Part shown: positions 4,868 through 63,696 of the stretch, in pieces | Layout of the letters: each line of letters opens with the position of its first letter | How positions within the stretch are numbered: position 1 is the stretch's first letter | DNA from: Clostridium sp. CAG:762 | Lineage (GTDB): Bacteria; Bacillota_I; Bacilli_A; RF39; UBA660 | Assembly (NCBI GenBank): GCA_000432575.1 | Contig: HF996781.1 | Coordinates: 129-64,128 of the forward strand | DNA length: 64,000 nt | Direction: 5' to 3' | Program-made: the position numbers and the translations under genes | The notes under the pieces: model-generated | What the model was told of the DNA's origin: nothing | Databases searched by the model: none | The model's input: only the letters and a program-made list of their open reading frames with translations

Positions 4868-4955
4868 GTTTAAATATGCCTTAAATAATGAATATATTAG
4901 TACAAAAAACTTAGAAAATTTAGATTATTTATTAATAAAAGAAAAGAGTAGTATT

Positions 4956-6656: not shown

Positions 6657-6657
6657 A

Positions 6658-38142: not shown

Positions 38143-39324
38143 ATGAAAAATACATTCTTAAATAAAATAGATAGTATTATTAGTATTAAAATAACAGGTA
38201 AGAATGTTTATAATTTTATTAATAAGATTATTAAAAATAAAATTAATATTTATAATTTAGATATAATTAATAGGAAAGAAGCTATTGTTAAAATAAAATA
38301 TAAAGATTATCTTAAATTAAAAAAAATGCATACTATCTATCATTTTAATATATATAGTTATCATGGTAAATTAAAAATAAGAAATTATATTAAAAAAAAT
38401 TATATTTTTTATACTGCTATAATATTGGGATTAATATTATTATTTATTTTATCTAAAATGATATTTAGTATAGAGGTAATTCATTCTAATAAAGATATAA
38501 GAGATTTAATATATAAGGAATTAAATTATCATGGTATTAATACTTTTACATTTAAGAAAGATTATCATAAATTAGAAAGTATAGAGAATAAGATACTTAG
38601 TGATAATAAAGATAAATTGGAATGGATAGAGATTAATATTAGTGGTACTAAATATATTGTTAAGGTGTTAGAAAGAAAATTGAATAATAATAATGTTGAT
38701 GATAATATATATAATGTTGTGGCATCTAAGAATGCTATTATTAGTAAGGTTAAGGCTAGTCATGGGGTTATATTAAAGAATACTAATGATTATGTTAGGA
38801 AAGGAGAAGTTATAATATCTTCTAATGTTATTTTGCCTAATGGTAGTGTTAATTTAACAAATGCTAGTGGGACTGTATATGGAGAAGTATGGTATGAAGT
38901 TGAGGCTACTCATCCATATATTTATAAGGAAGAAAGTGCTACTGGTAAGAAGAAGGAAGTTTATGTTATTAAATTTTTAAATAAAAGGTTTTCAATATTT
39001 GATTTTAATCATTTTGATACGTTTAAATATAGTGAGAAGGTTATTTTAAAAGATAATTATAATATTATAAGGTTTGTTAAGGAAAAGCAATATGAATTAA
39101 AGGTAATTGACGAATATTATACTAAGGAAGAGTTAATTAATAAGATGGTAGATATTGCTAAGAATAAGATAAGTGAGAATTTAGAAGATGATGAGTATAT
39201 TAAGAATTATTTTATTTTAGAAGATACTTTTAATGAAAGTGGAATTACTTTAAAAATTTTTTTTAGTGTTGTTGAAAGTATTGGGGTTTTAGAAAAAATA
39301 GAAAATATTGTACAAAATGAATAG
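38143..39324 (+). CDS. yqfD: stage IV sporulation protein YqfD-like
   Basis: 393 aa, with a central TM helix and a C-terminal ..GVILKNTNDYVRKGEVIISS.. segment. Conserved yqfC-yqfD gene order. Confidence 0.55.
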   Translation: MKNTFLNKIDSIISIKITGKNVYNFINKIIKNKINIYNLDIINRKEAIVKIKYKDYLKLKKMHTIYHFNIYSYHGKLKIRNYIKKNYIFYTAIILGLILLFILSKMIFSIEVIHSNKDIRDLIYKELNYHGINTFTFKKDYHKLESIENKILSDNKDKLEWIEINISGTKYIVKVLERKLNNNNVDDNIYNVVASKNAIISKVKASHGVILKNTNDYVRKGEVIISSNVILPNGSVNLTNASGTVYGEVWYEVEATHPYIYKEESATGKKKEVYVIKFLNKRFSIFDFNHFDTFKYSEKVILKDNYNIIRFVKEKQYELKVIDEYYTKEELINKMVDIAKNKISENLEDDEYIKNYFILEDTFNESGITLKIFFSVVESIGVLEKIENIVQNE

Positions 39325-42549: not shown

Positions 42550-45500
42550 ATGGCTACGATGTGGACAAATGAACAGCTTGACGCCATTAATAAGGAAGGG
42601 ACAAATATAATAGTCTCTGCGGGAGCGGGAAGTGGAAAAACAGCAGTACTTACTGAGAGAGTAATTAGGAAACTAAAAAGTGGAGTACCAATTACGAGAT
42701 TACTTATTTTGACATTTACTAATATGGCTTCAAAGGAAATGAAGGATAGAATAAGAGAATCTATTAAGGATGATGAGAGTTTAAAAGAACAACTTAATTT
42801 GTTAGATACAGCATTTATTACAACGTTTGATAGTTATGCTTTATCAATTGTTAAGAAATATCATTATAAAGTAGGGGTAAGTAATAATATTGAGATTGCT
42901 GAGAGTAGTATCATTGATTTAAAAAAGATTGAATTAATAGATAAGATATTTGAATCTTTTTATTGTAAAGATGATGATTTGTTTATTAAATTAATTACAG
43001 ATTTTTGTATTAAAGATGATAAGGAAATAAAAGATTATATTTTAACAATTAGTAACAAGTTAGATATGAAATATGATAAAATAGATTATTTAAATGGTTA
43101 TTTAAATAATTATTATAGTGATACTTTTTTAGATAATATGATTTTAGAGTATACTAAGTTATTAAATAAGATAATTGATGAGATAAAGGAATTACTTACT
43201 AATATATCTAGTTATGTAGATAGTAATTATTATTTAAAATTAGAAACTAGTATGATTAATTTGCTTAGTGCTAATGATTATGATTCAATTAAGGAGAATA
43301 TTAATATAAAACTTCCTATGATTCCAAGAGGTACAGGGGATGAGGCTAAGAAATTAAAGGAAGAAATAAAAAATAATATAGATAAATTAAAGGAATATGC
43401 TATATATGATGATGTTAATCATATAAAAGAAACGATTTTATTAACTAAAGATTATGCTAAGGTTATAGTATCTATTTTATTGAAATTGGATAAAGAATTA
43501 AATGATTATAAGAAAGAAAATGAGTTATATGATTTTACTGATATAGCAAAATTAGCTATTAAGATAGTAAGTGAAAATGATGATATTAAGGAAGAACTTA
43601 GGAATAGTTATAATGAAATAATGATAGATGAGTATCAAGATACTAATGATTTACAGGAATTATTTATTTCTAATATTAGTAATAATAATACTTATATGGT
43701 AGGAGATGTTAAGCAGTCTATATATAAATTTAGGAATGCTAATTTATATATATTTAAGAATAAGTATGATAATTATGCTAATTTAGATGGTGGTATTAAG
43801 ATAGATTTAAATAAGAATTTTAGGTCAAGAGAAGAGGTAATAAGTGGTATTAATTTGATATTTGATTATATCATGAATGATAATATGGGTGGTGCTTCTT
43901 ATAAAAAAGAGCATCGTATGATATTTGGTAATCTTACATATAATGCTTTTAAGGCTAAACAAAATAATAGTTTAGAGATATATAATTATAATGAGGATAA
44001 GAAATTTTCTAAGGAAGAAACTGAGATATTTATTATTGCTAATGATATATTGAATAAGATTAAAAATAATTATCAAGTATATGATAAGAATAAAAAGGAA
44101 TTAAGAAGTGTTGATTATAGTGATTTTGTTATTTTAGTGGATCGTATTACTAATAGTTATTTATATAAGAAAATATTTAAGTATTTAAATATACCTTTAA
44201 TAGTATATAAAGATAGTGTTATTAATGATTCTGTTATTTATACGGTTATTAAAAATATTATTGGTTTAATTATTAAAGTATATAGTAAATGTTATGATGA
44301 GGAATTTAAGTATTTATATGTGAGTATAGCTAGAAGTTTTTTAGTAGAATATAAGGATGATTATATTTTTGATGTGGTTATGAATAATAAGTATTATGAG
44401 ACTAGTTTATTTAATAGGGTTAAGGATATTGCTGGGAAGGTAGATTATTTAACAATAAGTGGTGTTTTGGATTTAATAATTGATGATTTCAATATTTATG
44501 ATAATCTTATTAAAATAGGTAATATCAGTGATTGTTTAAGCGATATTAATTATATGAAAGAATTATTTTTGAAGATGAATAATTATAATTTGAGTGAATT
44601 ATATGATTATTTAAAAGGAATAAATGATAATGGAATAGATTTGAAATATTTAAAGGTAGATAATTTTACTAATGGGGTAAAGTTAATGACAATTCATAGG
44701 TCTAAGGGATTAGAATATAATATATGTTATTATAATATGTTGTTTAAGGAATTTAATTTAAGGGATGTTACTGATAAGTTTTATTATGATAATAAGTATG
44801 GAATAGTTATGCCTTATATAGACAATGGAATAAATAGGACGATTATTAGTAAGATGGTTAAGGATAATTATTATAATGAGGAAATAAGTGAAAGAATTAG
44901 GTTATTCTATGTGGCTATGACTAGGGCTAAGGAAAAAATGATAGTTATAGTAAATGATATATATGAGAGTGATGTGAAGAAGAAATTTAAGAGTTTTAGG
45001 GATATTATTTTAAGTATTAGGGATTGTTTATCTAATAATATTACTGATTATGATATTAGTAAAATAAATATTACTAGGGATTATAATTATGGAAAAAATG
45101 ATGTTTATAGAGCAGATAATGCTAAAGTGCTGAAGGTTAATGAATTAGTAATAGATAATGGTTACATAGAGGAATCAAGTTATTCTAAGAAGACTAATAA
45201 TATTTTTTCTTATGACGAGAAGAAGTTATTGGAAGTAGGGGAAAGGTTGCATTATATTCTTGAGGTAATTGATTTGAAACATCCTAATTTGGATATAATA
45301 AAGGATTATTTTATTAGAGATAAGGTGAGTAGTTTATTAAGTAGTGATTTGTTTAAAAATATAGGTAATGCTAAGATCTATAAAGAATATGAATTTATAT
45401 ATAATCATGATTTAGTTAAGAGGCATGGTATTATTGATTTGATGTTAGAGTATGATAATTATATAGATATAATTGATTATAAATTGAAGAATATTGATGA

Positions 45501-45618
45501 TACAAATTATTTGAAGCAATTAGAGGGATATATGGAGTATATTAAGAGTATTAGTAATAAGGATGTTAATATTTATTTGTATTCACTTATTGATAAGAAG
45601 TATAAGAAATTAAATTAA
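42550..45618 (+). CDS. addA: UvrD/Rep-family helicase with C-terminal RecB-like PD-(D/E)xK nuclease (AddA/RexA-like), no AddB partner adjacent
   Basis: Walker A SAGAGSGKTAVL. UvrD motifs (DEYQDTN). C-terminal GIIDLMLEY...IIDYKLKN nuclease motif. Confidence 0.65.
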   Translation: MATMWTNEQLDAINKEGTNIIVSAGAGSGKTAVLTERVIRKLKSGVPITRLLILTFTNMASKEMKDRIRESIKDDESLKEQLNLLDTAFITTFDSYALSIVKKYHYKVGVSNNIEIAESSIIDLKKIELIDKIFESFYCKDDDLFIKLITDFCIKDDKEIKDYILTISNKLDMKYDKIDYLNGYLNNYYSDTFLDNMILEYTKLLNKIIDEIKELLTNISSYVDSNYYLKLETSMINLLSANDYDSIKENINIKLPMIPRGTGDEAKKLKEEIKNNIDKLKEYAIYDDVNHIKETILLTKDYAKVIVSILLKLDKELNDYKKENELYDFTDIAKLAIKIVSENDDIKEELRNSYNEIMIDEYQDTNDLQELFISNISNNNTYMVGDVKQSIYKFRNANLYIFKNKYDNYANLDGGIKIDLNKNFRSREEVISGINLIFDYIMNDNMGGASYKKEHRMIFGNLTYNAFKAKQNNSLEIYNYNEDKKFSKEETEIFIIANDILNKIKNNYQVYDKNKKELRSVDYSDFVILVDRITNSYLYKKIFKYLNIPLIVYKDSVINDSVIYTVIKNIIGLIIKVYSKCYDEEFKYLYVSIARSFLVEYKDDYIFDVVMNNKYYETSLFNRVKDIAGKVDYLTISGVLDLIIDDFNIYDNLIKIGNISDCLSDINYMKELFLKMNNYNLSELYDYLKGINDNGIDLKYLKVDNFTNGVKLMTIHRSKGLEYNICYYNMLFKEFNLRDVTDKFYYDNKYGIVMPYIDNGINRTIISKMVKDNYYNEEISERIRLFYVAMTRAKEKMIVIVNDIYESDVKKKFKSFRDIILSIRDCLSNNITDYDISKINITRDYNYGKNDVYRADNAKVLKVNELVIDNGYIEESSYSKKTNNIFSYDEKKLLEVGERLHYILEVIDLKHPNLDIIKDYFIRDKVSSLLSSDLFKNIGNAKIYKEYEFIYNHDLVKRHGIIDLMLEYDNYIDIIDYKLKNIDDTNYLKQLEGYMEYIKSISNKDVNIYLYSLIDKKYKKLN

Positions 45619-48388: not shown

Positions 48389-48502
48389 TTATGCAGTTTT
48401 ATTGCAAATAATCCAGCTTAATACGGAAATTTTAAAAAATACTCAATTCGACATAAAAAAACAAATCAATTGTTGTATAATTATATTCGAGGAGATGATG
48501 TA

Positions 48503-49936
48503 ATGAAACTATCAGATTATGAAAATGTTGAATCTACTTATATAGATTTTAAAGAGAGTCTAGAAACGGATAAACCAAAGAGTTGGTTAAAAACAGTATC
48601 TGCTTTTGCAAATACAAAAGGAGGAATCTTGTTATATGGTGTAAGAGATACAGATAAAAAACCGATAGGTTTAGATAATATATCTGAAGTATCATCAAAA
48701 ATTACAGAGTTAGTCAATTCCAAAATATCTCCTGTTCCTAGATATGAATTAAATTCTTTTAAGGAAGATGAGAAAGATTTTTTAGAAGTCAAAGTTGGAG
48801 ATGGCCCTGAAACACCATATTATTATAGCAGTGATGGAAGAAAAACTGCTTATATTAGAGCTGGAGATCAAAGTATAGAAGCACCTGATCATATATTGAA
48901 AAGTTTAATTTTAAAAGGCCAAAATAGAACATTTGATGCAATTGCTTCTGAGTATAAAATAGATGATGTTAGTTTTACATTGCTGGATGCAACTTTAAAA
49001 AAAGAAGCAAATGTTATAGTTAATAAAGATCGTGATTATCTTTCATTTAATTTGGTTAATAAAGATGGTTATGTTACTAATGCTGGGCTTTTGCTATCTG
49101 ACCAAGGATTGTTAAAGCAATCAAAAGCTTTTTGTACAAAATGGAAGGGAACTGTAAAAGGATCTGTTGAGGGGGATGCTGAAGACGATAAAGAATACAA
49201 TGGAAGCATAATAAGTATTCTTGCTAATGCAGAAACATTTATAAAAAATAATTCAAAAACATCATGGCAAATAAATGGTATGCATAGAGATGAATTTGAG
49301 GACTATCCTACAAAAGCTGTTCGTGAAGCTTTAGTTAATGCAATAATACATAGGGATTATCAAATCTTGGGTTCTGAAATACACATCGATATGTTTGATG
49401 ATAGACTTGAAATTACATCACCAGGAGGAATGGTTGATGGCAGTCAAATACAAGATTTAGATTTAACTAAAATTCCGTCATTAAGAAGAAATACAATTAT
49501 TTCAGATCTATTTGGTAGATTACATTATATGGATAGAAGAGGAAGTGGAATAACAAGAATTTTGGAATCTTATTCAGATTGTTCAATGAAACCAAAGTTT
49601 ACATCTGGAGTATCAAGCTTTACTGTTATCTTTCCAAATAAAAGATATGTAAAAGAGAACAAAGTTACAGAACGAGAGAGAATAATTATTACTAATGATT
49701 CGGATTATTTTATTGTAAAAATGTATAAGAATCTTTCAGGAAAAGTTAGAGGAAATTATTTGGCAAATTTGGAAAACTTATTTAATGAATATGGATATGA
49801 TACTCCTTTCAATAGGGAAAAAGTTGAAAATGCATTTGGAGTAAAAAAATCAAGAGCTTTAGATATAATCAATCAATTAATTAATTGTGATATTTTAGAG
49901 TATGCAGAAGATACAAAATATAGATTTAAAAGATAA
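48503..49936 (+). CDS. AlbA_2 (Schlafen-like) DNA-binding domain plus HATPase_c_4 (RecG-C-terminal-like) domain protein, C-terminal wHTH
   Basis: YIDFKESLE...AFANTKGGILLYGV (AlbA_2). REALVNAIIHRDY (HATPase_c_4). RBS GAGGAG before the internal ATG. Confidence 0.6.
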   Translation: MKLSDYENVESTYIDFKESLETDKPKSWLKTVSAFANTKGGILLYGVRDTDKKPIGLDNISEVSSKITELVNSKISPVPRYELNSFKEDEKDFLEVKVGDGPETPYYYSSDGRKTAYIRAGDQSIEAPDHILKSLILKGQNRTFDAIASEYKIDDVSFTLLDATLKKEANVIVNKDRDYLSFNLVNKDGYVTNAGLLLSDQGLLKQSKAFCTKWKGTVKGSVEGDAEDDKEYNGSIISILANAETFIKNNSKTSWQINGMHRDEFEDYPTKAVREALVNAIIHRDYQILGSEIHIDMFDDRLEITSPGGMVDGSQIQDLDLTKIPSLRRNTIISDLFGRLHYMDRRGSGITRILESYSDCSMKPKFTSGVSSFTVIFPNKRYVKENKVTERERIIITNDSDYFIVKMYKNLSGKVRGNYLANLENLFNEYGYDTPFNREKVENAFGVKKSRALDIINQLINCDILEYAEDTKYRFKR

Positions 49937-49947: not shown

Positions 49948-51072
49948 TTATTCCTGGTCTTCATTCATTTCATCAATAAGTGATGTTATATCAGTTAATG
50001 CATTTTTATAAAGATGAGTATAAGTATTAAGCGTTTCTTCTATTTTTGTATGTCCCAAAAATTTGAAAACAGTAATAATATTAGCACCTTTATGTATTAA
50101 TAAAGAAGCACAAGAATGTCTAAAGTCATGGATCATTATTTTCTTAACACCAGCAAGTTCACAATTGCGATTTTTTCTACCTGTAATAGTATTGCTGATT
50201 TGTGGAGCGACATCACTAATTACAAAGTAAGTATCCTGAAAGCCAAATAACAATTCATAATCACTTTCGTTAAGTGTTTTTAGGTCAGTTAAGAGTACTT
50301 TTGTTAATGGCAATACTCTATTACTTCTAACTGTTTTTGGTGGTGAGAATGTCCATCTAGAGCGACATGATTACTGAGTTATTTGTTTATTTATGCTTAC
50401 AGTTCTATTTCCAAAATTAATGTCTTTCCAAGTTATACCTTTTAGTTCTCCAATTCTTAATCCGCAGTAGTGGAGTAGTTGCCATGCACATCTAAATTTA
50501 ATATCTTTTTCTACAGATAAGAATTTTTGAAATTTATCATAAGTGAAATATAGCATTTCTTTTGGAAGTTCATTTGGATTATTAAAATTATGCATTTTTT
50601 TATAAACATGTATAAAGCTGAAGCCATACCAATCAGTAGCATAGTTTAATAATGATTTAAGAAATTTTTAAATATCATTTTTGTATCTGGTAGATAAGTT
50701 GCAACTATTTATATATCGTCTCCATCTTTCGTATACTTTAATATTAAAATCTTTTAATCTAATATTTGAAATTATATCTAAATATGGTCGTTTATTTCTA
50801 TAACCATACATAGTAGTATCCTTAACTATAGTGGATCTGTTTTTAATAAACAAATTAATAAGTTGTCCAAATGTAAATGCACAAACACTTGCTTCATTCT
50901 GTGATTTTATTAATAACTCAGCTTCAGTTTCTTGAGCTTCTCTTTTTGTCATATATCTTTTAGAATGATATTGAGCTCCCGTTCCATCTAATTTTTTATA
51001 TTTTGTTCTAAAATACCAGTACTTTCCACTTTTAGCAGGAACTTTATCTTTATATACAGGCATTTTAATCAT
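49948..51072 (-). pseudogene. tyrosine recombinase (phage-type integrase) disrupted into three ORF fragments
   Basis: 50668..51072 carries the N-terminal arm/SAM-like domain. 50371..50595 carries box I (GLRIGEL). 49948..50313 carries box II (HDFRHSCASLL...LGH...Y). The fragments are in different frames. Confidence 0.7.
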
Positions 51073-51475: not shown

Positions 51476-51649
51476 TATAACCTCCGTAATGCATTAATCG
51501 CTTAAATTTTGGAATTAGTCAACATATTCATACAAAAATTCAAATTTTGTAATAAAAATCTAGTCAAATATCTAAAAATTGATGTTTTTATGGTATAATT
51601 ATGAGTAGGAGAAAATAGCTTAAAACTTAGAAAAGGAGGTACATTGGTT

Positions 51650-52318
51650 ATGAAAAAGAGAAGCAAGATATTGATAGATTTAATAAATGATGAAATTGAT
51701 GTAAAAAAAGCATTTCAGCTGTTATCATTACTTCTAGAAGATTTGGATGATAAGGAAATTGAAAACTGGTTGAATTATGAGTTGAATGGATATCCTAAAA
51801 ATGTTGGTGTACCCAGATACAGAGTGATTAATGCATCAATAATAGGTACAGTTAAAACCTATACTATGATTATTAGCAAATATGATATTCCGGTGCCTTT
51901 TGAAGATAAAGAGAAATTATGTAAACATGAAGTAAGAGATAGTATTGCTGAAATATGCCAATATGCTAAAGCTGAAGAGGAATCTGATATGCATTGCTTG
52001 TTATCACCAATTGATATTGGATATATTAACTCTGTTGCCCTTATTAATGATGCAGAAGTTACACACGCCAATTTACAATTAAGTATGTATGGTTATACTA
52101 ATGTATTGCACTGGTTAAAGGACAAATTAATAGAAATTTTTAAAAAACTAGAAAAAAAATATGGTAATCTTGATGAGTACTATATAGACTTTAAAACTTG
52201 TAAAGATAAAAAAGACATAACAAAAGCATTATTACAAATTATATATAATGACAATTCCGTTAGGATTGGCAATAATAATAAAATAGATAAAAGCAAAGTG
52301 GGAAATAATAATGATTAA
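51650..52318 (+). CDS. AbiTii-like abortive-infection protein (tentative)
   Basis: The N-terminal ..IDVKKAFQLLSLLLEDLDDKEIENWLNYELNGY.. resembles the AbiTii domain. RBS AAAGGAGGT. Location in a defense island. Confidence 0.4.
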   Translation: MKKRSKILIDLINDEIDVKKAFQLLSLLLEDLDDKEIENWLNYELNGYPKNVGVPRYRVINASIIGTVKTYTMIISKYDIPVPFEDKEKLCKHEVRDSIAEICQYAKAEEESDMHCLLSPIDIGYINSVALINDAEVTHANLQLSMYGYTNVLHWLKDKLIEIFKKLEKKYGNLDEYYIDFKTCKDKKDITKALLQIIYNDNSVRIGNNNKIDKSKVGNNND

Positions 52319-52475
52319 AATAGGAAATAATAATAAAATTAATAAATCAATTATCGGTAGTGATAATAAGATAGAAAAAGAAAAAGATAAAAAGTATATA
52401 CTTACTAATATAATAATACCTATTATTGTTGGTTTGATAATTGCTGGAATAGTGTTTTTATTAAAGTGGAATTAA
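52311..52475 (+). CDS. 54-aa single-TM peptide overlapping the AbiTii-like stop (ATGATTAA)
   Basis: MIKIGNNNKINKS...IIIPIIVGLIIAGIVFLLKWN. Shares the IGNNNKI(D/N)KS motif with the C-terminus of the upstream ORF. Ends 13 nt before hsdM. Confidence 0.45.
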   Translation: MIKIGNNNKINKSIIGSDNKIEKEKDKKYILTNIIIPIIVGLIIAGIVFLLKWN

Positions 52476-52488: not shown

Positions 52489-54054
52489 ATGAATAATAAG
52501 GAAAGAGAAAGAGAAGAACTTCATAAAACAATTTGGAAAATTGCAAATGAGTTAAGAGGTTCAGTCGATGGATGGGATTTTAAACAATACGTTTTAGGAT
52601 TATTATTTTATAGATTTATATCAGAAAACATTGAAAATTATGTTAATGAAAATCAAAGAAAAGCAGGTATTACAGATTTTCAATATAGAAATATTTCTGA
52701 TGAGGAAGCATTACTTGGAAAATTACAAATACTTGATGAAAAAGGATTCTTTATTCTTCCAAGTGAATTATTCTGCAACATAAGAAAAGGTGCAGATAAA
52801 AATGAAAACTTAAATGTTGTTATTTCAAATGTATTTAATAACATAGAATCATCGGCAAGAGGAACAGCGTCAGAAGATGATGTTAAAGGTTTATTTGATG
52901 ATTTTACTATTGATAATAAATTAGGAAACACGGTTGATGAAAGAAATGAAAAACTTGTTAAATTATTAAATGCAGTTGGGGATTTAAACTTTGGCGATTA
53001 TGAAGATAATAACATTGACTTATTCGGAGATGCTTATGAGTTCTTGATGACAATGTATGCTTCATCAGCAGGCAAATCGGGTGGAGAATTCTTTACTCCT
53101 CAAGAAGTTGGAGAATTACTTGCAAGAATAGTAATAATGGATAAAACATCTGTTAATAAAGTATACGATCCAGCATGTGGATCAGGTGGATTACTTTTAA
53201 AATTTGCTAAGATACTTGGAAAAGAGAATGTAAGAGAAGGCTTCTTCGGTCAAGAGATAAATCTTACAACTTACAACTTAGCTAGAATTAATATGTTTTT
53301 ACATAACATTAATTACAATAACTTTAGTATTGAAAGAGGAGATACATTAATACATCCAGTACATTGGAATGATGAACCATTTGATGCAATAGTATCTAAT
53401 CCTCCTTATTCAATAAAATGGGCAGGTAAGTCTAATCCACTTTTAATAAATGATGAACGATTTGCTCCAGCAGGTGTGTTAGCACCTGAATCAAAAGCCG
53501 ATTTAGCATTTACTATGCATATGTTATCATGGTTATCACCTAAAGGAACTGCAGCTATAGTAGAATTTCCTGGTGTACTTTACAGAGGTGGAGCAGAACA
53601 AAAAATTAGAAAGTACATGATTGATAACAACTTTGTTGATACTGTCATTCAATTACCTTCAGATTTATTCTTTGGTACATCAATAGCAACTTGTATATTA
53701 GTATTAAAGAAAAATAAATCAGATAATAATATTTTATTTGTAGATGCTTCTAGTGAATGTGTTAGAAATACTAATAAAAACAAATTATCAGAAGAAAACA
53801 TCAATAATATAATTAGTTTATTAAAAGATAGAAAATCAGTAGAAAATAAATCTTATATAGCAACTTATGAAGAGATTAAAGATAATGATTATAATATTTC
53901 AGTTAATTCTTATTTAAGAACAAATATTGAAACTAAAAAAATTGATATAGAAAAGGTAAATAGAAAACTTGCTGAAATTGTACCTAAACAACAACAAATT
54001 AGAGAAGAACTAGAAGAAATAATCAAGGAACTTGAGGCTGATTATCATGAGTAA
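52489..54054 (+). CDS. hsdM: type I restriction-modification system DNA methyltransferase subunit HsdM
   Basis: AdoMet motif I DPACGSGGLL and catalytic motif IV VSNPPYS. RBS GGAGGT. Confidence 0.9.
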   Translation: MNNKEREREELHKTIWKIANELRGSVDGWDFKQYVLGLLFYRFISENIENYVNENQRKAGITDFQYRNISDEEALLGKLQILDEKGFFILPSELFCNIRKGADKNENLNVVISNVFNNIESSARGTASEDDVKGLFDDFTIDNKLGNTVDERNEKLVKLLNAVGDLNFGDYEDNNIDLFGDAYEFLMTMYASSAGKSGGEFFTPQEVGELLARIVIMDKTSVNKVYDPACGSGGLLLKFAKILGKENVREGFFGQEINLTTYNLARINMFLHNINYNNFSIERGDTLIHPVHWNDEPFDAIVSNPPYSIKWAGKSNPLLINDERFAPAGVLAPESKADLAFTMHMLSWLSPKGTAAIVEFPGVLYRGGAEQKIRKYMIDNNFVDTVIQLPSDLFFGTSIATCILVLKKNKSDNNILFVDASSECVRNTNKNKLSEENINNIISLLKDRKSVENKSYIATYEEIKDNDYNISVNSYLRTNIETKKIDIEKVNRKLAEIVPKQQQIREELEEIIKELEADYHE

Positions 54055-55183
54055 GATAAATGATCTAATAAAAGAATTGTGTCCTAATGGTGTTGAATGT
54101 AAACTGTTAAGAGATGTATCCGAGATGAAGAGAGGGCAATCAATTACTACAAAAAATCTTAACGAAGGAAATTTTCCGGTAATTGCAGGAGGACAAGAAC
54201 CATCTTTTTATAACGATAAATATAATAGGGAAGGCGAAACTATAACAGTATCTAGTTCGGGTGCTTATGCTGGATTTTTAAATTATTGGAACGAACCAAT
54301 CTTATGTACAGATTCTTTCACTATAAAATCCAAAAAACTAAATATGAGATATTTATATCATTATCTAAAAATGATACAAAATGAAATTTATAATAAAAAA
54401 AGGGGAGCCGGTATTCCACATGTTCATATATCGGATTTGGAAAAAATTAAGATTCCATGCCCTCCGTTAGAAGTGCAGGAAGAAATAGTTAGAATTCTTG
54501 ATAAATTTGGCGAGCTAGAAGCGGAGCTAGAAGCGGAGCTAGAAGCGAGAAAGATTCAATATGAGTTTTGGTGTGGGAAACTTTTGAATAGCGAGAATTC
54601 TAATCAACAATATATAACTTTAGGAGATATAGGTAAGGTTTGTATGTGTAAAAGAATTATGAAAAACGAAACATCAGATTCAGGAGATGTTCCATTTTAT
54701 AAAATCGGTACATTTGGTAAGCAAGCTGATGCATATATATCTTATGATATTTTCAATGATTATAAAAAAAGGTTTTCTTATCCTAAGAAAGGCGAAATAT
54801 TAGTTTCGTGCTCTGGAACAATAGGAAGATCTGTAGTATTTGATGGCGAAGATGCCTATTTTCAAGATTCAAATATTGTGTGGCTAAGTAATGATGAAAG
54901 CAAAGTATTAAATAAGTTTTTGTATTACTTTTATCAAACTTCACCATGGAATATATCTGATGGCGGAACTATTAAAAGATTATATAATAATCAGTTTATA
55001 TCAGCTAAAGTTCCATTATATTCTTTAGAAGAACAAAAGAAGATTGTTGATATATTAGAACGATTTGATACATTAATTAACGATATATCTGATGGTCTTC
55101 CTGCAGAAATAAAATTAAGAAGAAAGCAGTATGAATACTATCGAAATAAACTATTAAGCTTTGAGGTTTGTAACGATGAATAA
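54047..55183 (+). CDS. hsdS: type I RM specificity subunit HsdS (two target-recognition domains plus central conserved region)
   Basis: The start overlaps the hsdM stop (ATGAGTAA). Central LDKFGELEAELEAELEARK coiled coil and C-terminal conserved region. Confidence 0.85.
   Translation: MSKINDLIKELCPNGVECKLLRDVSEMKRGQSITTKNLNEGNFPVIAGGQEPSFYNDKYNREGETITVSSSGAYAGFLNYWNEPILCTDSFTIKSKKLNMRYLYHYLKMIQNEIYNKKRGAGIPHVHISDLEKIKIPCPPLEVQEEIVRILDKFGELEAELEAELEARKIQYEFWCGKLLNSENSNQQYITLGDIGKVCMCKRIMKNETSDSGDVPFYKIGTFGKQADAYISYDIFNDYKKRFSYPKKGEILVSCSGTIGRSVVFDGEDAYFQDSNIVWLSNDESKVLNKFLYYFYQTSPWNISDGGTIKRLYNNQFISAKVPLYSLEEQKKIVDILERFDTLINDISDGLPAEIKLRRKQYEYYRNKLLSFEVCNDE
54512..54547 (+). repeat. 3 x 12-nt perfect tandem repeat (GAGCTAGAAGCG) encoding ELEA x3 in the HsdS central conserved region
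   Basis: Read directly from the sequence. Confidence 0.85.
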
Positions 55184-55628
55184 AGATTTTAATTTAAGTA
55201 TAAAAAAATTAAATATATTAATCGAATATGTTAATAAATGTGAAATTGATGAAAATGAATTATATGAAAAAATGGTTGATACTTTCAGCTATATTGGAGC
55301 ATTTTATGATTATACAGATAAAAAAGCATTAACTAAAGAACAAAATGTATATTTAAAATGTTGCTCTGTTTTAAATAATGTATTTAAACATAAAAAAGAA
55401 TTGAATGGTTTAATAGAAGAATTAAAAATAATAAAATATGGAACTGATTTAAGTCACTGTCTATTAGATGCACCATTTGGAGATGTTGTATATTTTCAAA
55501 ATTCATTATATTTAGAAAATATGCGTGATTCAAATAATTATAATTATTATAAGAAAAACATTGAAAATCAAAGACTTGATATATTTTTATCAAAAGTAGA
55601 GAAAGTGTTGGGTGAATTAAATGACTAA
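55176..55628 (+). CDS. hypothetical 150-aa protein embedded between hsdS and hsdR (orfX)
   Basis: The ATG overlaps the hsdS stop and the stop overlaps the hsdR start (ATGACTAA), so the gene is translationally coupled in the operon. No recognisable motif. Predicted helical. Confidence 0.55.
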   Translation: MNKDFNLSIKKLNILIEYVNKCEIDENELYEKMVDTFSYIGAFYDYTDKKALTKEQNVYLKCCSVLNNVFKHKKELNGLIEELKIIKYGTDLSHCLLDAPFGDVVYFQNSLYLENMRDSNNYNYYKKNIENQRLDIFLSKVEKVLGELND

Positions 55629-58600
55629 TATAGGTTTAATAAGTGAAAATGATAACTCTACAGTACTTGCTGAATATAAAGGATTAAATAGAGTAACAAC
55701 TTCTTTTCAGAGTGAAGATGCTCTTGAAAAAGAATTAATAAAAACTTTAGTTGAACAGGGTTATGAAAGATTAAATATTAATTCTGTAGATGAATTAATT
55801 CTTAATTTAAGAAAACAACTTGAAAGACTTAATAATTATCATTTTACTGATGGAGAATGGGATGATTTCTTTACCAAAGTAATTGCTAATAAGAATGATT
55901 ATATAATTGAAAAGACAAAATTAATTCAAGAAGATTATAAACAAGAAATAACTCTTGATTCGGGAGAAAAGAAAAATATTTATTTAATAGATAAAAATAA
56001 TATTCATAATAATAGTCTTCAAGTGTTAAATCAATATGTTAATAATGATGGTAATTTTGATAATAGATATGATGTGACAATTTTAGTGAATGGTCTTCCT
56101 TTAGTTCACATTGAATTAAAGAAAAGAGGAGTAGATCTAAGAGAAGCTTTTAACCAAATAGAAAGATATCAAAGAGATTCATTTTGGGCAGGCTCAGGAT
56201 TATATAACTTTATTCAAATATTTGTTATTTCTAATGGTACATTAACTAAATATTATTCTAATACTACAAGAGAATTTCACATTAATAATCAAAGAAAAAA
56301 GAAATCTAACTCATTTGAATTTACTTCATATTGGGCAGATCAAAAGAATAATGGAATTACAGATTTAATTGACTTTGCTAAAACATTCTTTACTAAACAT
56401 ACGTTATTAAATGTATTAACTAAATATTGTGTATTTACTTCTGAAGAAGATTTACTTGTTATGAGACCATATCAAATAGTTGCAACTGAAAAGATATTAA
56501 ATAGAATAACTATTGCTTATAATAACAAGTTCTATGGAACTATTAAATCAGGAGGATATATTTGGCATACAACTGGTTCTGGAAAAACATTAACTTCATT
56601 TAAAACATCCCAACTTGCTAGTAAGTTAGATTTTATTGATAAAGTATTATTTGTTGTAGATAGAAAAGACTTAGACTATCAAACAATGAAAGAATATGAT
56701 AGATTTAAAGAGGGAGCAGCTAATTCTAATACATCAACAAAAGTATTAGAAGAACAATTGAAGGATCCAAATGCTAAGATAATAATAACTACTATTCAAA
56801 AGCTTTCTCAATTTATTAAGAAGAATGAACAAAGCGATGTATTTAATAAACATGTAGTATTTATATTTGATGAATGTCATAGATCACAATTTGGCGATAT
56901 GCATAAAACAATTATTAAGAAATTTAATAAATACTATTTATTTGGATTTACTGGAACTCCAATATTCCCAGAAAATGCTAGAACAATAAAAGGTATCTCT
57001 GAAACAACAGAGCAAATCTTTGGAGAAAGATTACATACTTATACAATAGTAAATGCTATTGCAGATAAGAATGTTTTACCATTCAGATATGAATATGTTG
57101 GCAGAGTAGATATATCTGATGATGTTAAAGATGAAAAAGTATATAACATTGATGAAGAAAAATTATTTGATAATCAAGTTAGAATTAATTTAATAACAGA
57201 TTATATTATTGAACATTTTAGCACAAAGACTAAAACTTCTGAAAGTTATGTGTATTCAACTTTAGATAATGTAGTTGATGTTGCTAAAAAACAAGATGCA
57301 GAAGAAGTTAAATCAAAGAAAAGTATAAATGGATTTAATTCTATATTTGCTGTATCAAGTATTAAAATGGCTAAAGAATATTATGCTGAATTTAAAAAAG
57401 AACTTGCATTAAAGAATAGTAATTTAAAAGTGGCATTAATGTATTCTTATGGTGTTAATGGCGAAGATGGAGTAATTGATGAAAATTCTGAATCAACAGA
57501 AGCTTTAAGTACAGATGATAGAACATTCTTAGATAATGCAATTAAAGATTATAATAATATGTTTGGAACAAGTTATGATACTTCATCAGAAAGATTCCAA
57601 AATTATTATAAAGATGTATCATTAAGAATGAAAAATAGAGAAATAGATATATTAATCGTTGCTAATATGTTCCTAACAGGATTTGATGCTAAAACTTTAA
57701 ATACATTATGGGTAGATAAGAACTTAAAATGGCATGGATTAATTCAAGCATTCTCAAGAACTAATAGAATCCTTAATAGTGTTAAGACATATGGAAATAT
57801 TGTGTCATTTAGAAATTTAGAAGATAGGCTAAATGAAGCGTTAGCTAAATTTGGTGATGAGGAAGCTCACGGAATAGTTTTATTAAAACCATATAATGAT
57901 TACTACTATGGATATGAAGATGATAATGGTAAAACATTTGAGGGATATAAATCATTAGTTGAAAAATTGACTTCTAAATTTGCACCAGGAGTATTAATGC
58001 AGAGCGAAGCAGAACAAAAAGAGTTTATTAAACTATATGGTGCAATATTAAAAGTAACAAATATCTTATCTTCATTCGATGAGTTCAAAGATAATGAATT
58101 AATTAATGAAAGAGATAAGCAAGATTATCATAGTATCTATATTGAACTTTATAATGAATTTAGAAATAAAGCTAAGCAAGAAAAAACGGATGTTACTGAA
58201 GATGTAGTATTCGAAATGGAATTAATTAAATCTATAGAAGTTAACATTGATTACATCTTAGGATTAGTTAAGAAATATCATGATAGCAACATGGAAGATA
58301 AAGAAATTCTTTTAACTATTCAAAAGACAATTATGGCAAGTCCAGATTTGAGAAATAAGAAAGATTTAATCATGGCATTTATTGAATCATTAGATCAAGA
58401 CTCAAATGTATATGCAGATTTTGAATCGTTTATGAATAGTAAAAAGAAAGAAGAATTAGATAAGATAATTGCAGAAGAGAATCTTAATAAAGAAGAAACA
58501 TACAACTTTATTCAAAGATCATTTGAACATGGAAGAGTAGAAACTAATGGTACAGAAGTATCAACAATACTTCCTCCAATGAGTATGTTTACTCCTAATA

Positions 58601-58689
58601 ATGATAGACAAGAAAAGAAGAATAAAGTTATAGATAAACTATTAGAATTCTTTGATAAATTCTTCAGTATGTCTAACAATAAATTCTAA
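55621..58689 (+). CDS. hsdR: type I RM restriction/helicase subunit HsdR
   Basis: N-terminal nuclease motif D..VNGLPLVHIELKK. SF2 helicase motif I HTTGSGKTLT and motif II FIFDECHRSQ. 1022 aa. Confidence 0.9.
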   Translation: MTNIGLISENDNSTVLAEYKGLNRVTTSFQSEDALEKELIKTLVEQGYERLNINSVDELILNLRKQLERLNNYHFTDGEWDDFFTKVIANKNDYIIEKTKLIQEDYKQEITLDSGEKKNIYLIDKNNIHNNSLQVLNQYVNNDGNFDNRYDVTILVNGLPLVHIELKKRGVDLREAFNQIERYQRDSFWAGSGLYNFIQIFVISNGTLTKYYSNTTREFHINNQRKKKSNSFEFTSYWADQKNNGITDLIDFAKTFFTKHTLLNVLTKYCVFTSEEDLLVMRPYQIVATEKILNRITIAYNNKFYGTIKSGGYIWHTTGSGKTLTSFKTSQLASKLDFIDKVLFVVDRKDLDYQTMKEYDRFKEGAANSNTSTKVLEEQLKDPNAKIIITTIQKLSQFIKKNEQSDVFNKHVVFIFDECHRSQFGDMHKTIIKKFNKYYLFGFTGTPIFPENARTIKGISETTEQIFGERLHTYTIVNAIADKNVLPFRYEYVGRVDISDDVKDEKVYNIDEEKLFDNQVRINLITDYIIEHFSTKTKTSESYVYSTLDNVVDVAKKQDAEEVKSKKSINGFNSIFAVSSIKMAKEYYAEFKKELALKNSNLKVALMYSYGVNGEDGVIDENSESTEALSTDDRTFLDNAIKDYNNMFGTSYDTSSERFQNYYKDVSLRMKNREIDILIVANMFLTGFDAKTLNTLWVDKNLKWHGLIQAFSRTNRILNSVKTYGNIVSFRNLEDRLNEALAKFGDEEAHGIVLLKPYNDYYYGYEDDNGKTFEGYKSLVEKLTSKFAPGVLMQSEAEQKEFIKLYGAILKVTNILSSFDEFKDNELINERDKQDYHSIYIELYNEFRNKAKQEKTDVTEDVVFEMELIKSIEVNIDYILGLVKKYHDSNMEDKEILLTIQKTIMASPDLRNKKDLIMAFIESLDQDSNVYADFESFMNSKKKEELDKIIAEENLNKEETYNFIQRSFEHGRVETNGTEVSTILPPMSMFTPNNDRQEKKNKVIDKLLEFFDKFFSMSNNKF

Positions 58690-58772
58690 TTTAGTGGTAT
58701 AATATAAATAAATAATAGAGTGTGTTTCATTTTTAAGATGGAATATGCTCTTTTTTAGTTAGGAGGAATATA

Positions 58773-61700
58773 ATGATTCCAGAATTAGTTTTTAATAATA
58801 ATATGGAAAAATTAAATAAAGAGGATGCTGAAGCAATAAAACGTTTAAGGGAAGAATTAAAAAATTATAATATGATTGATTTTCTATCACAAATATCTGG
58901 ATTAATTTTAATTCCTGAAAATCAAAGCAAATCGGTTATTTTTCAAGCAATTATAAGTACGGCTCTATCATTAAAGCACGATGATTTTAAGAGTGAAAAT
59001 ATCATGAGTCGTAATAAGCTTGAGTACTTTATTAAAGAATTTTCAAATCTTAATAGAAAATATATGATAGATCCTCCTGAATTTCCTTTTGCATTACCTG
59101 TCATTTATTATGGCAATTATCATTTGTTTATGGGAGCTAGCACGTTAGCTCCACATTATTTAGATCATATGTTAAAAATATTAGGTGTCCATAAAGAGGA
59201 CTTTCCATATGAAGATTATAGAAAATTTAATACTGTTGTTAAGGGTTTACTAAATGTATCCGAGTTTGTTTATAATTCATTAAATATTAAACTTAAAGAT
59301 TTAAAATCTTTTAATAAAGATATTGATATCAAAATACCTTCAGCTAGCGTTCTTAAATCCAGTAAAGAAACAGTAACTTTTAGTAAAGAAGATATGGTTG
59401 AATTATTTGGAGAACAATATGAACAACTTGTTATTGAATTTGGGGAAATAAGTATTGATGAAATAGATGATTTCGATAATCAAAAGTTTTATCGTAAACC
59501 ATTTGTTAGATATGGTGAGAAATTTGTTTTGGTAGATTGCACTGTTATTATCATGCTATTAATGGATATGATAATTAAGTTTTTCATGTCATATAAAATT
59601 TATGTTCTAAAAGATTATAATCTTTTGCTTTTACAGGACTTGCATAGAGATTTTACACGCATGGGTTTCCAATTATTAGATAGCAAACAATTTGAATTGG
59701 AACTTGAAAGTAATAATATAGTTGATGAATCTATATATTTGTGTGGTAATGATATAGCTTTTTACAATATTGTTTTATTTGATGATGGAAAAGACTATGA
59801 AACTAACAAGGAATATAAATATTCAATAAATAATAATTATATAAGTAATCGAATAAAAAAGGTCAAAAAACAATTATTAAAACATGGTTTTAAAGAAGAT
59901 AAAATTGTAGTAATCATTACTCCGACAACTATTGGTAGAAATACTATATGCGCAGTATATTTGAATTCTAATAAAAATTTACTAATGCTTTCTCCATATG
60001 AATTAACGTCAATATGTATTAATGAGTCTGAAGAAAATATGTTTTTATACAAGTATATTGTTGCTAGAAATAGATTAAAACATTATAAAAAGAATTTGTT
60101 TACTGAACTAAATTTTGTTGCTCTTTTTTCTGAAAGAGATAAATCATTCTATCTAGGTGATGAATGTGATTCAAAAGAAGCATCATTGTTTTTTATTGGT
60201 GAATATAGTAGTGATTATATTTTAAAATCTTATATAAAAAATGGTTATCACTTAGCTCTTTTTAGTAGAACATCTTTATTAGAAGTGATGAAAAAGGAAG
60301 ATGGAGTTTGTTTTGCTCCTGAATTATTTTATAAGCATCAATTAAACAATTTGCTTGAATTTAATAAATTTAATATATGGGTTTTAAGCGAAGAAAATAT
60401 TGATAATAATTCTTATCATATAACAAATCTAATTATAGATATGATTTCATATTGGTTAAATCAATTTTCAACATTATTTAAAGATTTGAATGGAGTGTTT
60501 AAAATTAATATTCATTGTGATCCATCAATATATGTTACACATTATGACAAAAGTAGCGAAGTTGGTAAAATATTATTCAATATTAATAGTAGACAGTTAG
60601 ACATTACTTTTGAAAAAAACTCTTTAAGGTATTTCGAATCCACTGATAATGATAAAGAAAAAGATTTTATATCTAATATAGTAAAGAAAATATGTGAAAT
60701 CTATCAAATTGAGTATCCAAGTGAGTTGATTAATCAGATTTTTAGTAATAACTATAAAAAGAAACTAATTCTTATGAATTCTAATGATGATGGGTATATG
60801 CTTCCTTTTGATGATGAATGTGTTTTATACGTTAGTAATGCTATTTCAAATTTGATAATAGATGATGTAGGACTATATTTAAAAGATGACAGAAAAATAC
60901 CTTATGGGAAAATAGAAGATTATAAAATTTTAAATGATATCGTTGGACATCTATACAATAATATTCTGAAGAAAATTAAAAAGTATAATAAGCGTCAGTT
61001 AATAGATTTTTTATATCTAGAATTTGAAAAAAATTTATCATCATTATTAATAAGACAAGCAAATTATGCTAGCGATTTAGTATGCTATCCTGATAGAAAA
61101 AAAGAGATAGATGAAAAGATAAATGATTTGAATCGAACTTCAGTCGCATTAAAATTTATCATAGAATTAGTTTCATCAATTAAAATAGATGGAATCGATG
61201 ATATTTCGCTATATGAAATTGAATATATTTTAACAGAAGCTTCCAAAATAATTGATTATGCATATACATGTGATATTTACAACTATAAAATGGCCGATAA
61301 TACATTAACCTTATTAAATTCTAATCGATTAGGGTACAATAAAGATTTCTTGATAAGAGTAAACCATTTTTTAAAAAATGCAAAGATGGGTAGGATGGGA
61401 TCCAGAGCAAAAGATAAACGAAAAATGATATCGCAATATGAAACTGAGAAAAAAGATATTCCTGGATTTGAAGAAGCTTTTGAAGATGAATTTGGATTTA
61501 CATTTAAAGATTTTACTGAAGTAACTGTATCATTGTTGGAAATAGCTGAGGATAAAAATGGTGACTTTAACACATTGTATTCAACGACTATAAAAGAACT
61601 AAAAGATCACATAAATAATAAAGTTAGTGATGATACTTTAAATAAAATTATTTTATACTTATCTCAAGTTGAAAGAGAAGATTATTTAAATCCGCCTACA

Positions 61701-62372
61701 CCATATCGAAATGTAGATGTATTTCCATGGAGAAACAATAGGGAACTTTCATTAAATAGAAAACCACTTATTATTTATAAAGACGAAATTATTTATGGTT
61801 ATAGGTCTCTTTTAAATGCGATATACTTTTTGTTCGAAATAATTAATAATGCTACATTTAAGGCAAGAAGTAAAAAGATGAAAACTTACCTTGGTATTAT
61901 AAACAAACAAAGTGGAGAAGACTTTAACGAAAAAGTATATAATTATTTGTGTACATTTCCAAATTCCATTGTAGATAAAAAAGTTAGTAAAATTAATGGT
62001 ATAAAAATTAATGATTCAGATAAGAATACATTAGGAGATATTGATGTACTTTTTATCTCTAAAAAGTTTAAAAGAATTATTGTATGTGAAGTTAAAAATT
62101 TTGAATTATCAAGAAATATGTATGAAATGTATAATGAATACCATGATTTGTTTGATCCTGATAATGAAAAAAGCTTTTATAATAAGCATATGAAAAGAGT
62201 AGAGTGGTGCAAAGATCATATTATGGATATTATTCAACATTATGGCTTAGAAAAGAAAAAATGGAGAATTGATTATTGCTTTATTGTTAATGAACCTTTG
62301 ATAAGTGATAAAGCCATGAAAGTTAATATAAATGCTTATGTATTAGAAGATATAGATAAATTCATTAAATAA
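58773..62372 (+). CDS. very large (1199 aa) hypothetical protein with C-terminal PD-(D/E)xK (NERD/DUF4263-like) nuclease motif and no P-loop
   Basis: RBS AGGAGGAATATA. The C-terminal GDIDVLFISKKFKRIIVCEVKNFE has the D-x15-E-x-K pattern. No GxxxxGK[ST] and no helicase motifs. Lies immediately downstream of hsdR. Confidence 0.6.
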   Translation: MIPELVFNNNMEKLNKEDAEAIKRLREELKNYNMIDFLSQISGLILIPENQSKSVIFQAIISTALSLKHDDFKSENIMSRNKLEYFIKEFSNLNRKYMIDPPEFPFALPVIYYGNYHLFMGASTLAPHYLDHMLKILGVHKEDFPYEDYRKFNTVVKGLLNVSEFVYNSLNIKLKDLKSFNKDIDIKIPSASVLKSSKETVTFSKEDMVELFGEQYEQLVIEFGEISIDEIDDFDNQKFYRKPFVRYGEKFVLVDCTVIIMLLMDMIIKFFMSYKIYVLKDYNLLLLQDLHRDFTRMGFQLLDSKQFELELESNNIVDESIYLCGNDIAFYNIVLFDDGKDYETNKEYKYSINNNYISNRIKKVKKQLLKHGFKEDKIVVIITPTTIGRNTICAVYLNSNKNLLMLSPYELTSICINESEENMFLYKYIVARNRLKHYKKNLFTELNFVALFSERDKSFYLGDECDSKEASLFFIGEYSSDYILKSYIKNGYHLALFSRTSLLEVMKKEDGVCFAPELFYKHQLNNLLEFNKFNIWVLSEENIDNNSYHITNLIIDMISYWLNQFSTLFKDLNGVFKINIHCDPSIYVTHYDKSSEVGKILFNINSRQLDITFEKNSLRYFESTDNDKEKDFISNIVKKICEIYQIEYPSELINQIFSNNYKKKLILMNSNDDGYMLPFDDECVLYVSNAISNLIIDDVGLYLKDDRKIPYGKIEDYKILNDIVGHLYNNILKKIKKYNKRQLIDFLYLEFEKNLSSLLIRQANYASDLVCYPDRKKEIDEKINDLNRTSVALKFIIELVSSIKIDGIDDISLYEIEYILTEASKIIDYAYTCDIYNYKMADNTLTLLNSNRLGYNKDFLIRVNHFLKNAKMGRMGSRAKDKRKMISQYETEKKDIPGFEEAFEDEFGFTFKDFTEVTVSLLEIAEDKNGDFNTLYSTTIKELKDHINNKVSDDTLNKIILYLSQVEREDYLNPPTPYRNVDVFPWRNNRELSLNRKPLIIYKDEIIYGYRSLLNAIYFLFEIINNATFKARSKKMKTYLGIINKQSGEDFNEKVYNYLCTFPNSIVDKKVSKINGIKINDSDKNTLGDIDVLFISKKFKRIIVCEVKNFELSRNMYEMYNEYHDLFDPDNEKSFYNKHMKRVEWCKDHIMDIIQHYGLEKKKWRIDYCFIVNEPLISDKAMKVNINAYVLEDIDKFIK

Positions 62373-63258: not shown

Positions 63259-63696
63259 TTAATTTAGTTTGTCTATAATATTAATTATTTCATTTAATTG
63301 ATTCTTAAATAGGTGAGAGTAAGTGTTTAATGTCTCATCTATTTTTGTGTGTCCTAAATACTTTGCTACAACGTTTATAGTAGCACCACTATTAATTAAA
63401 AGTGACGCACAACTATGTCTAAAATCGTATATTATAATTTGTTTAACTTCTGCCAACTTACAATCTTTGTTTTTTATATGCCTTAACTTTCCGTTTGTAA
63501 TTGGATCAGTATCTCCAAACAAATACCAGTCATCATTAAATCCATAATGTCTTTTAGAAACTTCATATAATACTTTCATCTCTTCCATTAATACTTTTGG
63601 TATAGGAATATTTCTTATACTAGATTTTGTTTTAGGTGTAGTTACCATATATGGTTTCTTTTCATCAACTTGAGTTGCTACAGTATTTGTTAACAC
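63259..63696 (-). pseudogene. N-terminally truncated tyrosine integrase (catalytic C-terminal half only)
   Basis: YDFRHSCASLLINSGATINVVAKYLGHTKIDETLNTYSHL carries box II and the Tyr region, about 70% identical to the 49948..50313 fragment. The arm and box I parts are absent. Confidence 0.65.

Follow-up and report, generated by a model that had tools for sequence, protein, structure and literature searches.

A 64,000-nucleotide stretch of contig HF996781.1 of Clostridium sp. CAG:762 (the window) carries a type I restriction-modification (R-M) operon in which a 150-amino-acid (aa) open reading frame (ORF), here called ORF X or simply X, is inserted between hsdS and hsdR. The original prediction, made from the sequence alone, placed X in this position, named the flanking genes and described an overlap at each end, but recognised no motif in the protein. 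The features of the operon, all on the + strand, are as follows.

52489-54054, +: hsdM, 521 aa; N6_Mtase (E 6.5e-111) and HsdM_N domains
54047-55183, +: hsdS, 378 aa from an ATG that overlaps the hsdM stop; two Methylase_S domains (E 1.6e-57)
55176-55183, +: overlap of the hsdS stop and the X start, ATGAATAA, 8 nucleotides (nt)
55176-55628, +: ORF X, 150 aa, intact; family without annotation; cargo in the hsdS-hsdR slot
55621-55628, +: overlap of the X stop and the hsdR start, ATGACTAA, 8 nt
55621-58689, +: hsdR, 1022 aa, type IC (EcoR124I-like)
58717-58751, +: terminator-like hairpin 3' of hsdR, closing the operon

The restriction-modification operon

The coordinates of X and both of its overlaps (ATGAATAA and ATGACTAA) were confirmed, and domain matches of hsdM, hsdS and hsdR bear out the earlier naming of the flanking genes. 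The X ATG at 55176 (context ...AACG ATG AAT AA) precedes the hsdS TAA at 55181-55183, and the X TAA at 55626-55628 follows the hsdR ATG at 55621. The hsdM/hsdS junction (54047-54054) has the same 8-nt overlap, of the form ATGAnTAA. A GAGG lies 9 nt 5' of the X ATG, and a GGTGA within the last codons of X forms a Shine-Dalgarno-like site for hsdR. No terminator-like sites were found on the + strand from the hsdM start to the hsdR stop; a promoter scan of this 25% GC sequence was uninformative (57 sites vs 64 expected). HsdR contains the domains HSDR_N (PF04313), SWI2_SNF2 (PF18766), T1R_D3 (PF22679) and EcoR124_C (PF12008, E 9e-64), and it matches the HsdR of EcoR124I (PDB 2w00/4bec) over its full length (E 1e-245). 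As judged from its domains and junctions, the host operon of X is a type IC (EcoR124-like) R-M operon with the order hsdM-hsdS-X-hsdR, fully coupled. The earlier proposal that X is co-transcribed and translationally coupled within it agrees with the 8-nt overlaps at both ends.

Conservation and predicted fold of X

A word-indexed search returned 13 full-length homologues of X (63-97% identity). An exhaustive HMMER profile search of 1.84 billion representatives gave 12 hits only, all of them family members (~147-162 aa) or fragments except one spurious repeat protein, and none of these 12 hits was a fusion of X to another domain. A second profile search brought the family to a total of 33 clusters, down to 36% identity, each 147-151 aa in length. 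Members carry only the name 'hypothetical protein' in every source, and the family was found only in uncultured gut and rumen Bacillota.

In an alignment of 25 family sequences (A3), 15 residues are invariant (L15, Y18, L29, Y30, K32, N68, F70, K71, H72, L83, P100, F107, N109, R133 and D135), and conserved blocks occur at 67-76 (xNxFKHxxE), 89-110 (YGT...APFGDVVxFxN) and 130-135 (QRxD). The ratio of nonsynonymous to synonymous substitution rates (dN/dS, omega) was 0.11-0.23 in moderately diverged pairs, and no pseudogenised copies were seen. The AlphaFold model of X was confident (pLDDT 84, pTM 0.80-0.81), with all five models concordant on the deeper alignment. It predicts a helical bundle with an inserted loop/beta region: helices at 3-19, 26-46 and 54-71/76, an insert with short strands at 77-118, and helices at 119-129 and 134-149. 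Residues 89-100, which are conserved, were modelled at low confidence. X has a pI of 5.3, with 24 acidic and 20 basic residues. Because its homologues are of constant length, dN/dS is low, the overlap with hsdR is kept and the AlphaFold model is confident, ORF X is more than a chance reading frame; on comparative grounds it is a genuine gene, conserved as a protein.

Twenty-four X loci were retrieved through the X searches, the window being additional. X lies directly 5' of a type IC hsdR in 24/24 of these and in the window, with an overlap of 8 or 4 nt; all contexts of X that were examined are hsd operons in which hsdR follows X directly. Of the loci, 23 reach the end of hsdS; 20 of these keep the 8-nt overlap of hsdS and X, and in the three exceptions (L013, L014 and L016) extra genes lie between hsdS and X. 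In L016 the order is hsdS, half-hsdS (195 aa), PrrC (365 aa), X and hsdR (6313-8417). L013 (7459-7989) and L014 (7482-7988), from metagenome-assembled genomes of Ca. Coprosoma and of an uncultured member of the Bacilli, have in this place a protein of 168-176 aa, for which two transmembrane (TM) helices are predicted at the N-terminus and which may form a two-gene cassette with X. Operon neighbours vary among the X loci, KAP NTPase, GmrSD, Fic, HipA and DUF5655 proteins among them. Since the flanking genes differ from locus to locus, HsdM, HsdS and HsdR are the sole constant partners of X. A conserved ~69-aa ORF without a Pfam match ends 1-2 nt before the hsdM start in many relatives (L001:7028-7237; L007:7016-7225; several of L105-L184), and a different 54-aa ORF occupies the same position in the window.

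X could also be imagined to derive from a core subunit, as a fragment or a duplicate (a piece of HsdS, for instance), or to be a spurious ORF arising from gene overlap. Position is the single argument for such an origin, half-hsdS genes being found in the slot of some relatives (L016, L167 and L027). X showed no similarity to HsdS, HsdM or HsdR by tblastn and phmmer, and neither X nor its family matched Methylase_S (PF01420), so that X was not recognised as an HsdS fragment, an identity that the original prediction had named as a possible refutation. The HsdM, HsdS and HsdR of the window are moreover all full length, and X is conserved as a protein with an independent, confidently predicted fold. 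This origin was rejected, and its probability is close to nil.

A cargo slot between hsdS and hsdR

The S-R gap of related operons was surveyed, as proposed with the original prediction, by a metagenome scan with the first 350 residues of HsdR, which returned 80 operons with HsdR 68-97% identical; the counts below rest on the 66 of these that have a full hsdS. The slot is empty in 17/66 operons, hsdS overlapping hsdR directly, while in 49/66 one or two genes occupy the S-R gap, and these genes fall into 13 clusters unrelated by blastp. X is in the slot in 2/66. The statement that the S-R junction of canonical type I operons holds no gene thus fails for this family. The cargo families, with those found only beside another slot gene listed last, were the following.

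c1: ~390 aa, no identity assigned; 13 loci, the commonest
c2: 368 aa, PrrC (PADLOC E 8.9e-86); 11 loci
c3: 160 aa, HEPN (PF05168); 6 loci
c4: 209-214 aa, membrane protein; 4 loci
c5: 229 aa, Zn-ribbon and DUF4145, PD-T7-4 match; 3 loci
c6: 234 aa, no identity assigned; 3 loci
c0 (X): 150 aa, no identity assigned; 2 loci
c9: 69-71 aa, Zn-ribbon-like, no identity assigned; 2 loci
c10: 283-286 aa, no identity assigned, RN-x3-H motif; 2 loci
c11: 146 aa, no identity assigned, RN-x3-H motif; 1 locus
c12: 244 aa, no identity assigned, RN-x3-H motif; 1 locus
c13: 296 aa, membrane protein; 1 locus
c8: half-hsdS, beside c1 in one locus
c7: two-TM protein, only beside X, in L013 and L014

Seven of these families (X, c1, c4, c6, c10, c12 and c13) had no match in Pfam or PADLOC; the PADLOC scan covered the cargo families other than c7 and c9. 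The RN-x3-H(G/S) motifs of c10, c11 and c12 are typical of HEPN proteins, and c10 and c12 are still unrecognised by Pfam. In L167 the order is hsdS, half-hsdS, a c1-family gene and hsdR, and X is not present. It had been noted earlier that known inserted partners are much larger than X; this holds for the 368-aa PrrC in the slot but not for the 146-aa and 160-aa (HEPN) cargos found there too.

The 5' ends of the cargos lie near the hsdS stop (that of X on the stop itself), and their 3' ends lie at or overlap the hsdR start. Nearly all cargos overlap the hsdR ATG by 4 or 8 nt, the stop otherwise falling within a few bases, and the S-R gap ends at locus coordinate ~6001-6008 in most of L105-L184. 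A GGAG-like element is found 8-10 nt before the hsdR ATG in nearly every cargo. These junctions show that the cargo gene itself supplies the predicted ribosome-binding site of hsdR; because cargos carry this element, the near-invariance of G146-E147 in X (GGTGAA) may owe as much to the hsdR ribosome-binding site as to the function of the protein. As delimited in these operons, the slot is precisely bounded, with its 3' end on the hsdR start, and through it a single conserved type IC enzyme is combined with at least 13 gene families.

Operons with HsdR 95-97% identical to that of the window had the slot empty or holding a wholly different gene, and in the PrrC (c2) operons the N-terminal 350 residues of HsdR are ~87-96% identical to the window's. 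No HsdR alignment column separated loci with X from loci without it, except codon 2, which is forced by the overlap. Judged by this distribution (2/66 operons with X, 17 empty slots, no X-specific HsdR residues), X is not an obligatory fourth R-M subunit, and its description as an integral part of the operon is not borne out in the functional sense. Accessory component, which had also been suggested, is the right category: X is exchangeable cargo in a variable slot.

X was never present in more distant type IC operons (80 IMG/VR loci, HsdR 42-61% identical). Some of these fill the S-R gap with Pua-like proteins, a membrane protein or half-hsdS; the Pua-like (PF24405) proteins of L038, L059 and L062 are 155-206 aa and lie in the gap at ~4350-4973. 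A 184-aa protein with an R-x4-H motif (LRCAMLHE) occupies the gap of L026. In an annotated RefSeq plasmid, NZ_CP114589.1 of Salinivibrio kushneri, the order is M, S, anticodon nuclease, a 66-aa winged helix-turn-helix (wHTH) regulator and R; the wHTH gene (L185:7255-7455) follows PrrC and overlaps the start of hsdR.

Independent evolution of X

At loci where HsdM and HsdR are 88-96% identical to those of the window, X is 35-97% identical. Between L007 and the window, for example, HsdM is 92%, HsdR 95% and X 36% identical. Nucleotide identity along the operon drops in both target-recognition domains of HsdS, which are only 34-42% identical among relatives, and again over the length of X; precisely at the hsdR start it is back at ~90%. 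X is thus shown, by comparison with the core subunits of the same operons, to evolve much faster than they do. Since X diverges to this extent beside HsdM and HsdR that hardly vary, it is an exchangeable accessory and not an integral subunit. Coupling of the X allele to HsdS specificity was considered and rejected: X copies 96-97% identical stand beside HsdS proteins of different length that are only 39-41% identical.

The X copies of the window, L017, L021, L114 and L176 are 98-100% identical at the DNA level, and their 8 distinct differences are all nonsynonymous, with 0 synonymous. When the window is paired with L017 or L021, dS is ~0.5 and omega ~0.06 in the flanking hsdM and hsdR. By our own estimate the probability of 8 nonsynonymous and 0 synonymous changes is ~1e-6 at omega 0.06 vs ~0.17 under neutrality. 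This pattern, together with the diverged flanks, shows that X alleles spread between operons by recombination, independently of hsdM and hsdR, and that X is under much weaker, or partly positive, selection.

X might also be a passenger without a defence role, either an insert that is selfish or neutral or an addiction element of the toxin type, persisting because the slot is recombination-accessible and well expressed. X is rare in the unbiased sample (2/66), its family is tiny (12 hits in 1.84 billion representatives), and recent changes that are all nonsynonymous are compatible with relaxed constraint. On the other hand, the length of its family members stays strictly within 147-151 aa, homologues down to 36% identity share 15 invariant residues, diverged pairs give omega values of 0.11-0.23 and pseudogenised copies were not seen; furthermore, where other cargos of the slot have been identified, they are defence genes (PrrC, the PD-T7-4 match and HEPN). 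We consider a passenger improbable.

The constant position of X next to hsdR raises a different alternative, in which X would be a regulator or assembly factor of HsdR, acting in restriction control, as an assembly chaperone or as an anti-anti-restriction shield, and would tune or protect restriction itself instead of adding a separate defence. X always abuts and overlaps hsdR (24/24), even where other cargo is present (L013/L014 and L016), and the RefSeq PrrC operon holds a different small gene, the 66-aa wHTH, in the same hsdR-overlapping position. The most conserved block of X (89-110) also includes the stretch modelled at low confidence, as if it became ordered only on binding a partner. 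However, HsdR proteins 95-97% identical work without X (17 empty slots) or with unrelated cargo, HsdR residues do not co-vary with X, and X has no DNA-binding or HTH signature. A range of 35-97% identity in X beside near-identical HsdR and HsdM is likewise at odds with a tight and specific interface. A control or anti-anti-restriction role draws no specific support from these results, and we regard an HsdR factor as rather unlikely.

Searches for relatives of X

X and all 25 aligned family members gave no match in Pfam, NCBIfam, PADLOC or PHROGs, and X matched no model of the known and candidate defence families in PADLOC-DB v2. Weak matches of the family to DUF7337 (E 7e-4, 4 members) and V-ATPase subunit I (E 0.003) were judged to be noise. 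Against PDB sequences, X gave nothing below E 0.4, either as a single sequence or as a profile. Foldseek searches with two X models against PDB and BFVD returned generic helical bundles, the best at E ~0.9; the recurring weak matches, to cytochrome b562-type bundles and all-alpha dUTPases (TM-score 0.25), were discarded. No homologues were found in IMG/VR, phage or plasmid collections, and no paralogues or silent cassettes elsewhere in the 64-kb window. The initial impression that X has no recognisable motif or known domain is therefore upheld by profile and structure searches.

Two specific identities were rejected. For PrrC/RloC, X has no AAA_13 domain and no PADLOC PrrC match, its hhalign probability against the PrrC of L016 is 1.3%, and it has no similarity to the PrrC C-terminal region. 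As a DNA-mimic anti-restriction protein or decoy (Ocr/ArdA-like), X is not strongly acidic and lacks phage and plasmid homologues.

A possible second-line defence module

PrrC is embedded in the type IC prr locus, where it is kept latent by the enzyme, and it is released when T4 Stp inhibits EcoprrI (PMC3874165; PMC12707154). HEPN proteins of at least 16 clades have links to R-M operons, where a PrrC-like logic has been suggested for their action (PMC3710099); defence genes are frequent among those embedded in type I R-M operons (bioRxiv 10.1101/2024.01.29.577857). Because of its position and its company in the slot, X is most likely a defence or guard module. We favour the reading that it is exchangeable cargo serving as a second-line anti-phage defence or guard module with PrrC-like logic, and we hold this with about even confidence. 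Production of X would keep pace with that of HsdR; X would be silent as long as the R-M complex is intact, and would act, or send a signal, once a phage disables or evades restriction. Its function would run through a conserved polar pocket made up of Y18, Y30, K32, N68, K71, H72, R133 and D135; the predicted helix order would bring these invariant polar residues to one pole of an up-down bundle, which suggests a catalytic or ligand-binding pocket.

This putative pocket may be an arginine-less HEPN-like RNase or an RNA- or nucleotide-binding site. N68-x3-H72 stands at the end of predicted helix 3, in the same place and form as the RN-x3-H of HEPN proteins; the placement of residues 67-72 was read from the secondary-structure string and is compatible with a four-helix HEPN bundle. 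R133 could stand in for the missing HEPN arginine, in line with a substitution proposed for HEPN families without the R (PMC3710099). Families that keep the H without the R have been described, namely Parep1/8 and c2405 (PMC3710099), so that a divergent HEPN member could lack the arginine. We nevertheless think HEPN-like chemistry in X unlikely.

Several observations weigh against a defence module of this kind and its proposed pocket. The clustering of the pocket residues is drawn from helix order, not from coordinates. The canonical HEPN arginine is missing, position 67 being N, S, C or W. X has no homology link to any defence protein in PADLOC, Pfam, NCBIfam or PHROGs, and the Foldseek searches of PDB and BFVD (best E ~0.9) show no HEPN or nuclease fold. 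Comparisons of X with the HEPN-type cargos of the slot by hhalign and Smith-Waterman stayed at noise level in what is a low-power test, since a control pair, PF05168 HEPN vs DUF4145, also fails hhalign, so that the method is powerless at this alignment depth. Finally, X stays adjacent to hsdR even beside PrrC, which may instead suggest a regulatory role directed at hsdR. Two resemblances seen by eye were set aside: that of X (NNAFKH...YGT..C) to c10 (RNAIIHG..YGTEINC), with an hhalign probability of <=1.1% and Smith-Waterman z means of <=1.3, and that of the region after the X motif to c11, which lacks support from either method (<=1.1%; z means <=1.3).

In a bolder and more tentative form, which we think somewhat doubtful, the second-line defence reading would make X the founder of a new minimal guard-effector class and the hsdS-hsdR junction an integron-style cassette site. 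X would then be an effector of 150 aa with no NTPase, whose fold has not been seen before and whose K/H/R/N/Y pocket is catalytic or binds a ligand. It would be co-translated with HsdR and set loose by phages that neutralise type I restriction, and gut Bacillota would shuffle at least 13 second-line defences through a translationally coupled slot. If X is an effector with a new fold or an arginine-less HEPN variant, the repertoire of abortive-infection toxins would be wider.

The slot is a more useful result than X itself. With a near-identical enzyme behind it, it forms a natural 'isogenic' series, ready for experiment, in which to ask how second-line modules read the state of the restriction complex. 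The seven unmatched cargo families, together with c7 and c9, are candidate defence genes, and embedded R-M defence genes, PrrC being the textbook case, are productive ground for finding new immune mechanisms.

The surrounding defence island

The operon lies within a defence island that comprises an AlbA_2/Schlafen protein, a fragmented integrase, AbiTii, hsdM-hsdS-X-hsdR, an Upx-like protein and a further integrase fragment.

48470-49936: AlbA_2/Schlafen and HATPase_c_4 protein of 488 aa, at the edge of the island; L009 has a similar protein close to its X operon
49948-51072, -: tyrosine integrase in three ORF fragments (Arm-DNA-bind_4; N- and C-terminal Phage_integrase parts)
51644-52475: AbiTii-domain protein, 224 aa (Pfam E 7.7e-20; PADLOC AbiTii), just upstream of hsdM
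58773-62372: 1199-aa protein directly 3' of hsdR, with a partial Upx match in its C-terminal half only
63259-63696, -: second integrase fragment, beyond the Upx-like gene

The integrase fragments are probably what is left of a mobile element on which the island was carried. The end of the AbiTii gene overlaps the 54-aa ORF that precedes hsdM, which has a hydrophobic C-terminus; among HEPN proteins, c2405, the family noted above as keeping the H without the R, is AbiTii-fused (PMC3710099). The Upx match of the 1199-aa protein has an NCBIfam E of 1.4e-24, far below the family cut-off, and a PADLOC E of 7e-18. A further ORF of 1022 aa at 42550-45618 is a UvrD-type helicase, not a second hsdR. Over the whole window (1-64000) GC is ~25%, GC skew is strongly positive throughout and large ORFs lie nearly all on the + strand; a YqfD sporulation gene at 38143-39324 suggests that the host is a spore-forming member of the Bacillota.

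Comparison with known systems

X represents a new family, so far without annotation, in an already known phenomenon, that of defence genes embedded in type I R-M operons. The closest parallel in position is PrrC of EcoprrI (prrA-prrB-prrC-prrD), which belongs to the same operon family, with an EcoR124-type hsdR, and occupies the same place between hsdS and hsdR; a true PrrC sits in this very slot in 11 sister operons. X differs from PrrC in its size (150 aa vs ~370-400 aa); it lacks an ABC/NTPase domain and the arginine of the Rx4-6H motif, resembles PrrC neither in sequence nor in profile, and is able to coexist with it (L016).

The stand-alone HEPN proteins linked to R-M operons (among them PF05168, DUF4145/PD-T7-4, Abi2, AbiU2 and ApeA; PMC3710099) are, like X, small, all-helical and R-M-embedded, and two such families (the 160-aa HEPN and the 229-aa DUF4145) occupy the slot of X. 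X has N-x3-H at the end of predicted helix 3, where HEPN proteins have RN-x3-H. In contrast to them, X has no HMM, hhalign or Foldseek match to any HEPN, its residue at the arginine position is variable, and its large insert follows helix 3 rather than lying between helices 2 and 3.

With the genes identified through 'guilt by embedding' in type I R-M, BREX, DISARM and Hma systems (bioRxiv 10.1101/2024.01.29.577857), many of which are shown defences, X shares same-strand nesting within the host operon. It differs in matching no PADLOC v2 model, the candidate families of that study included, and the slot described here is defined at nucleotide resolution across >60 near-identical operons.

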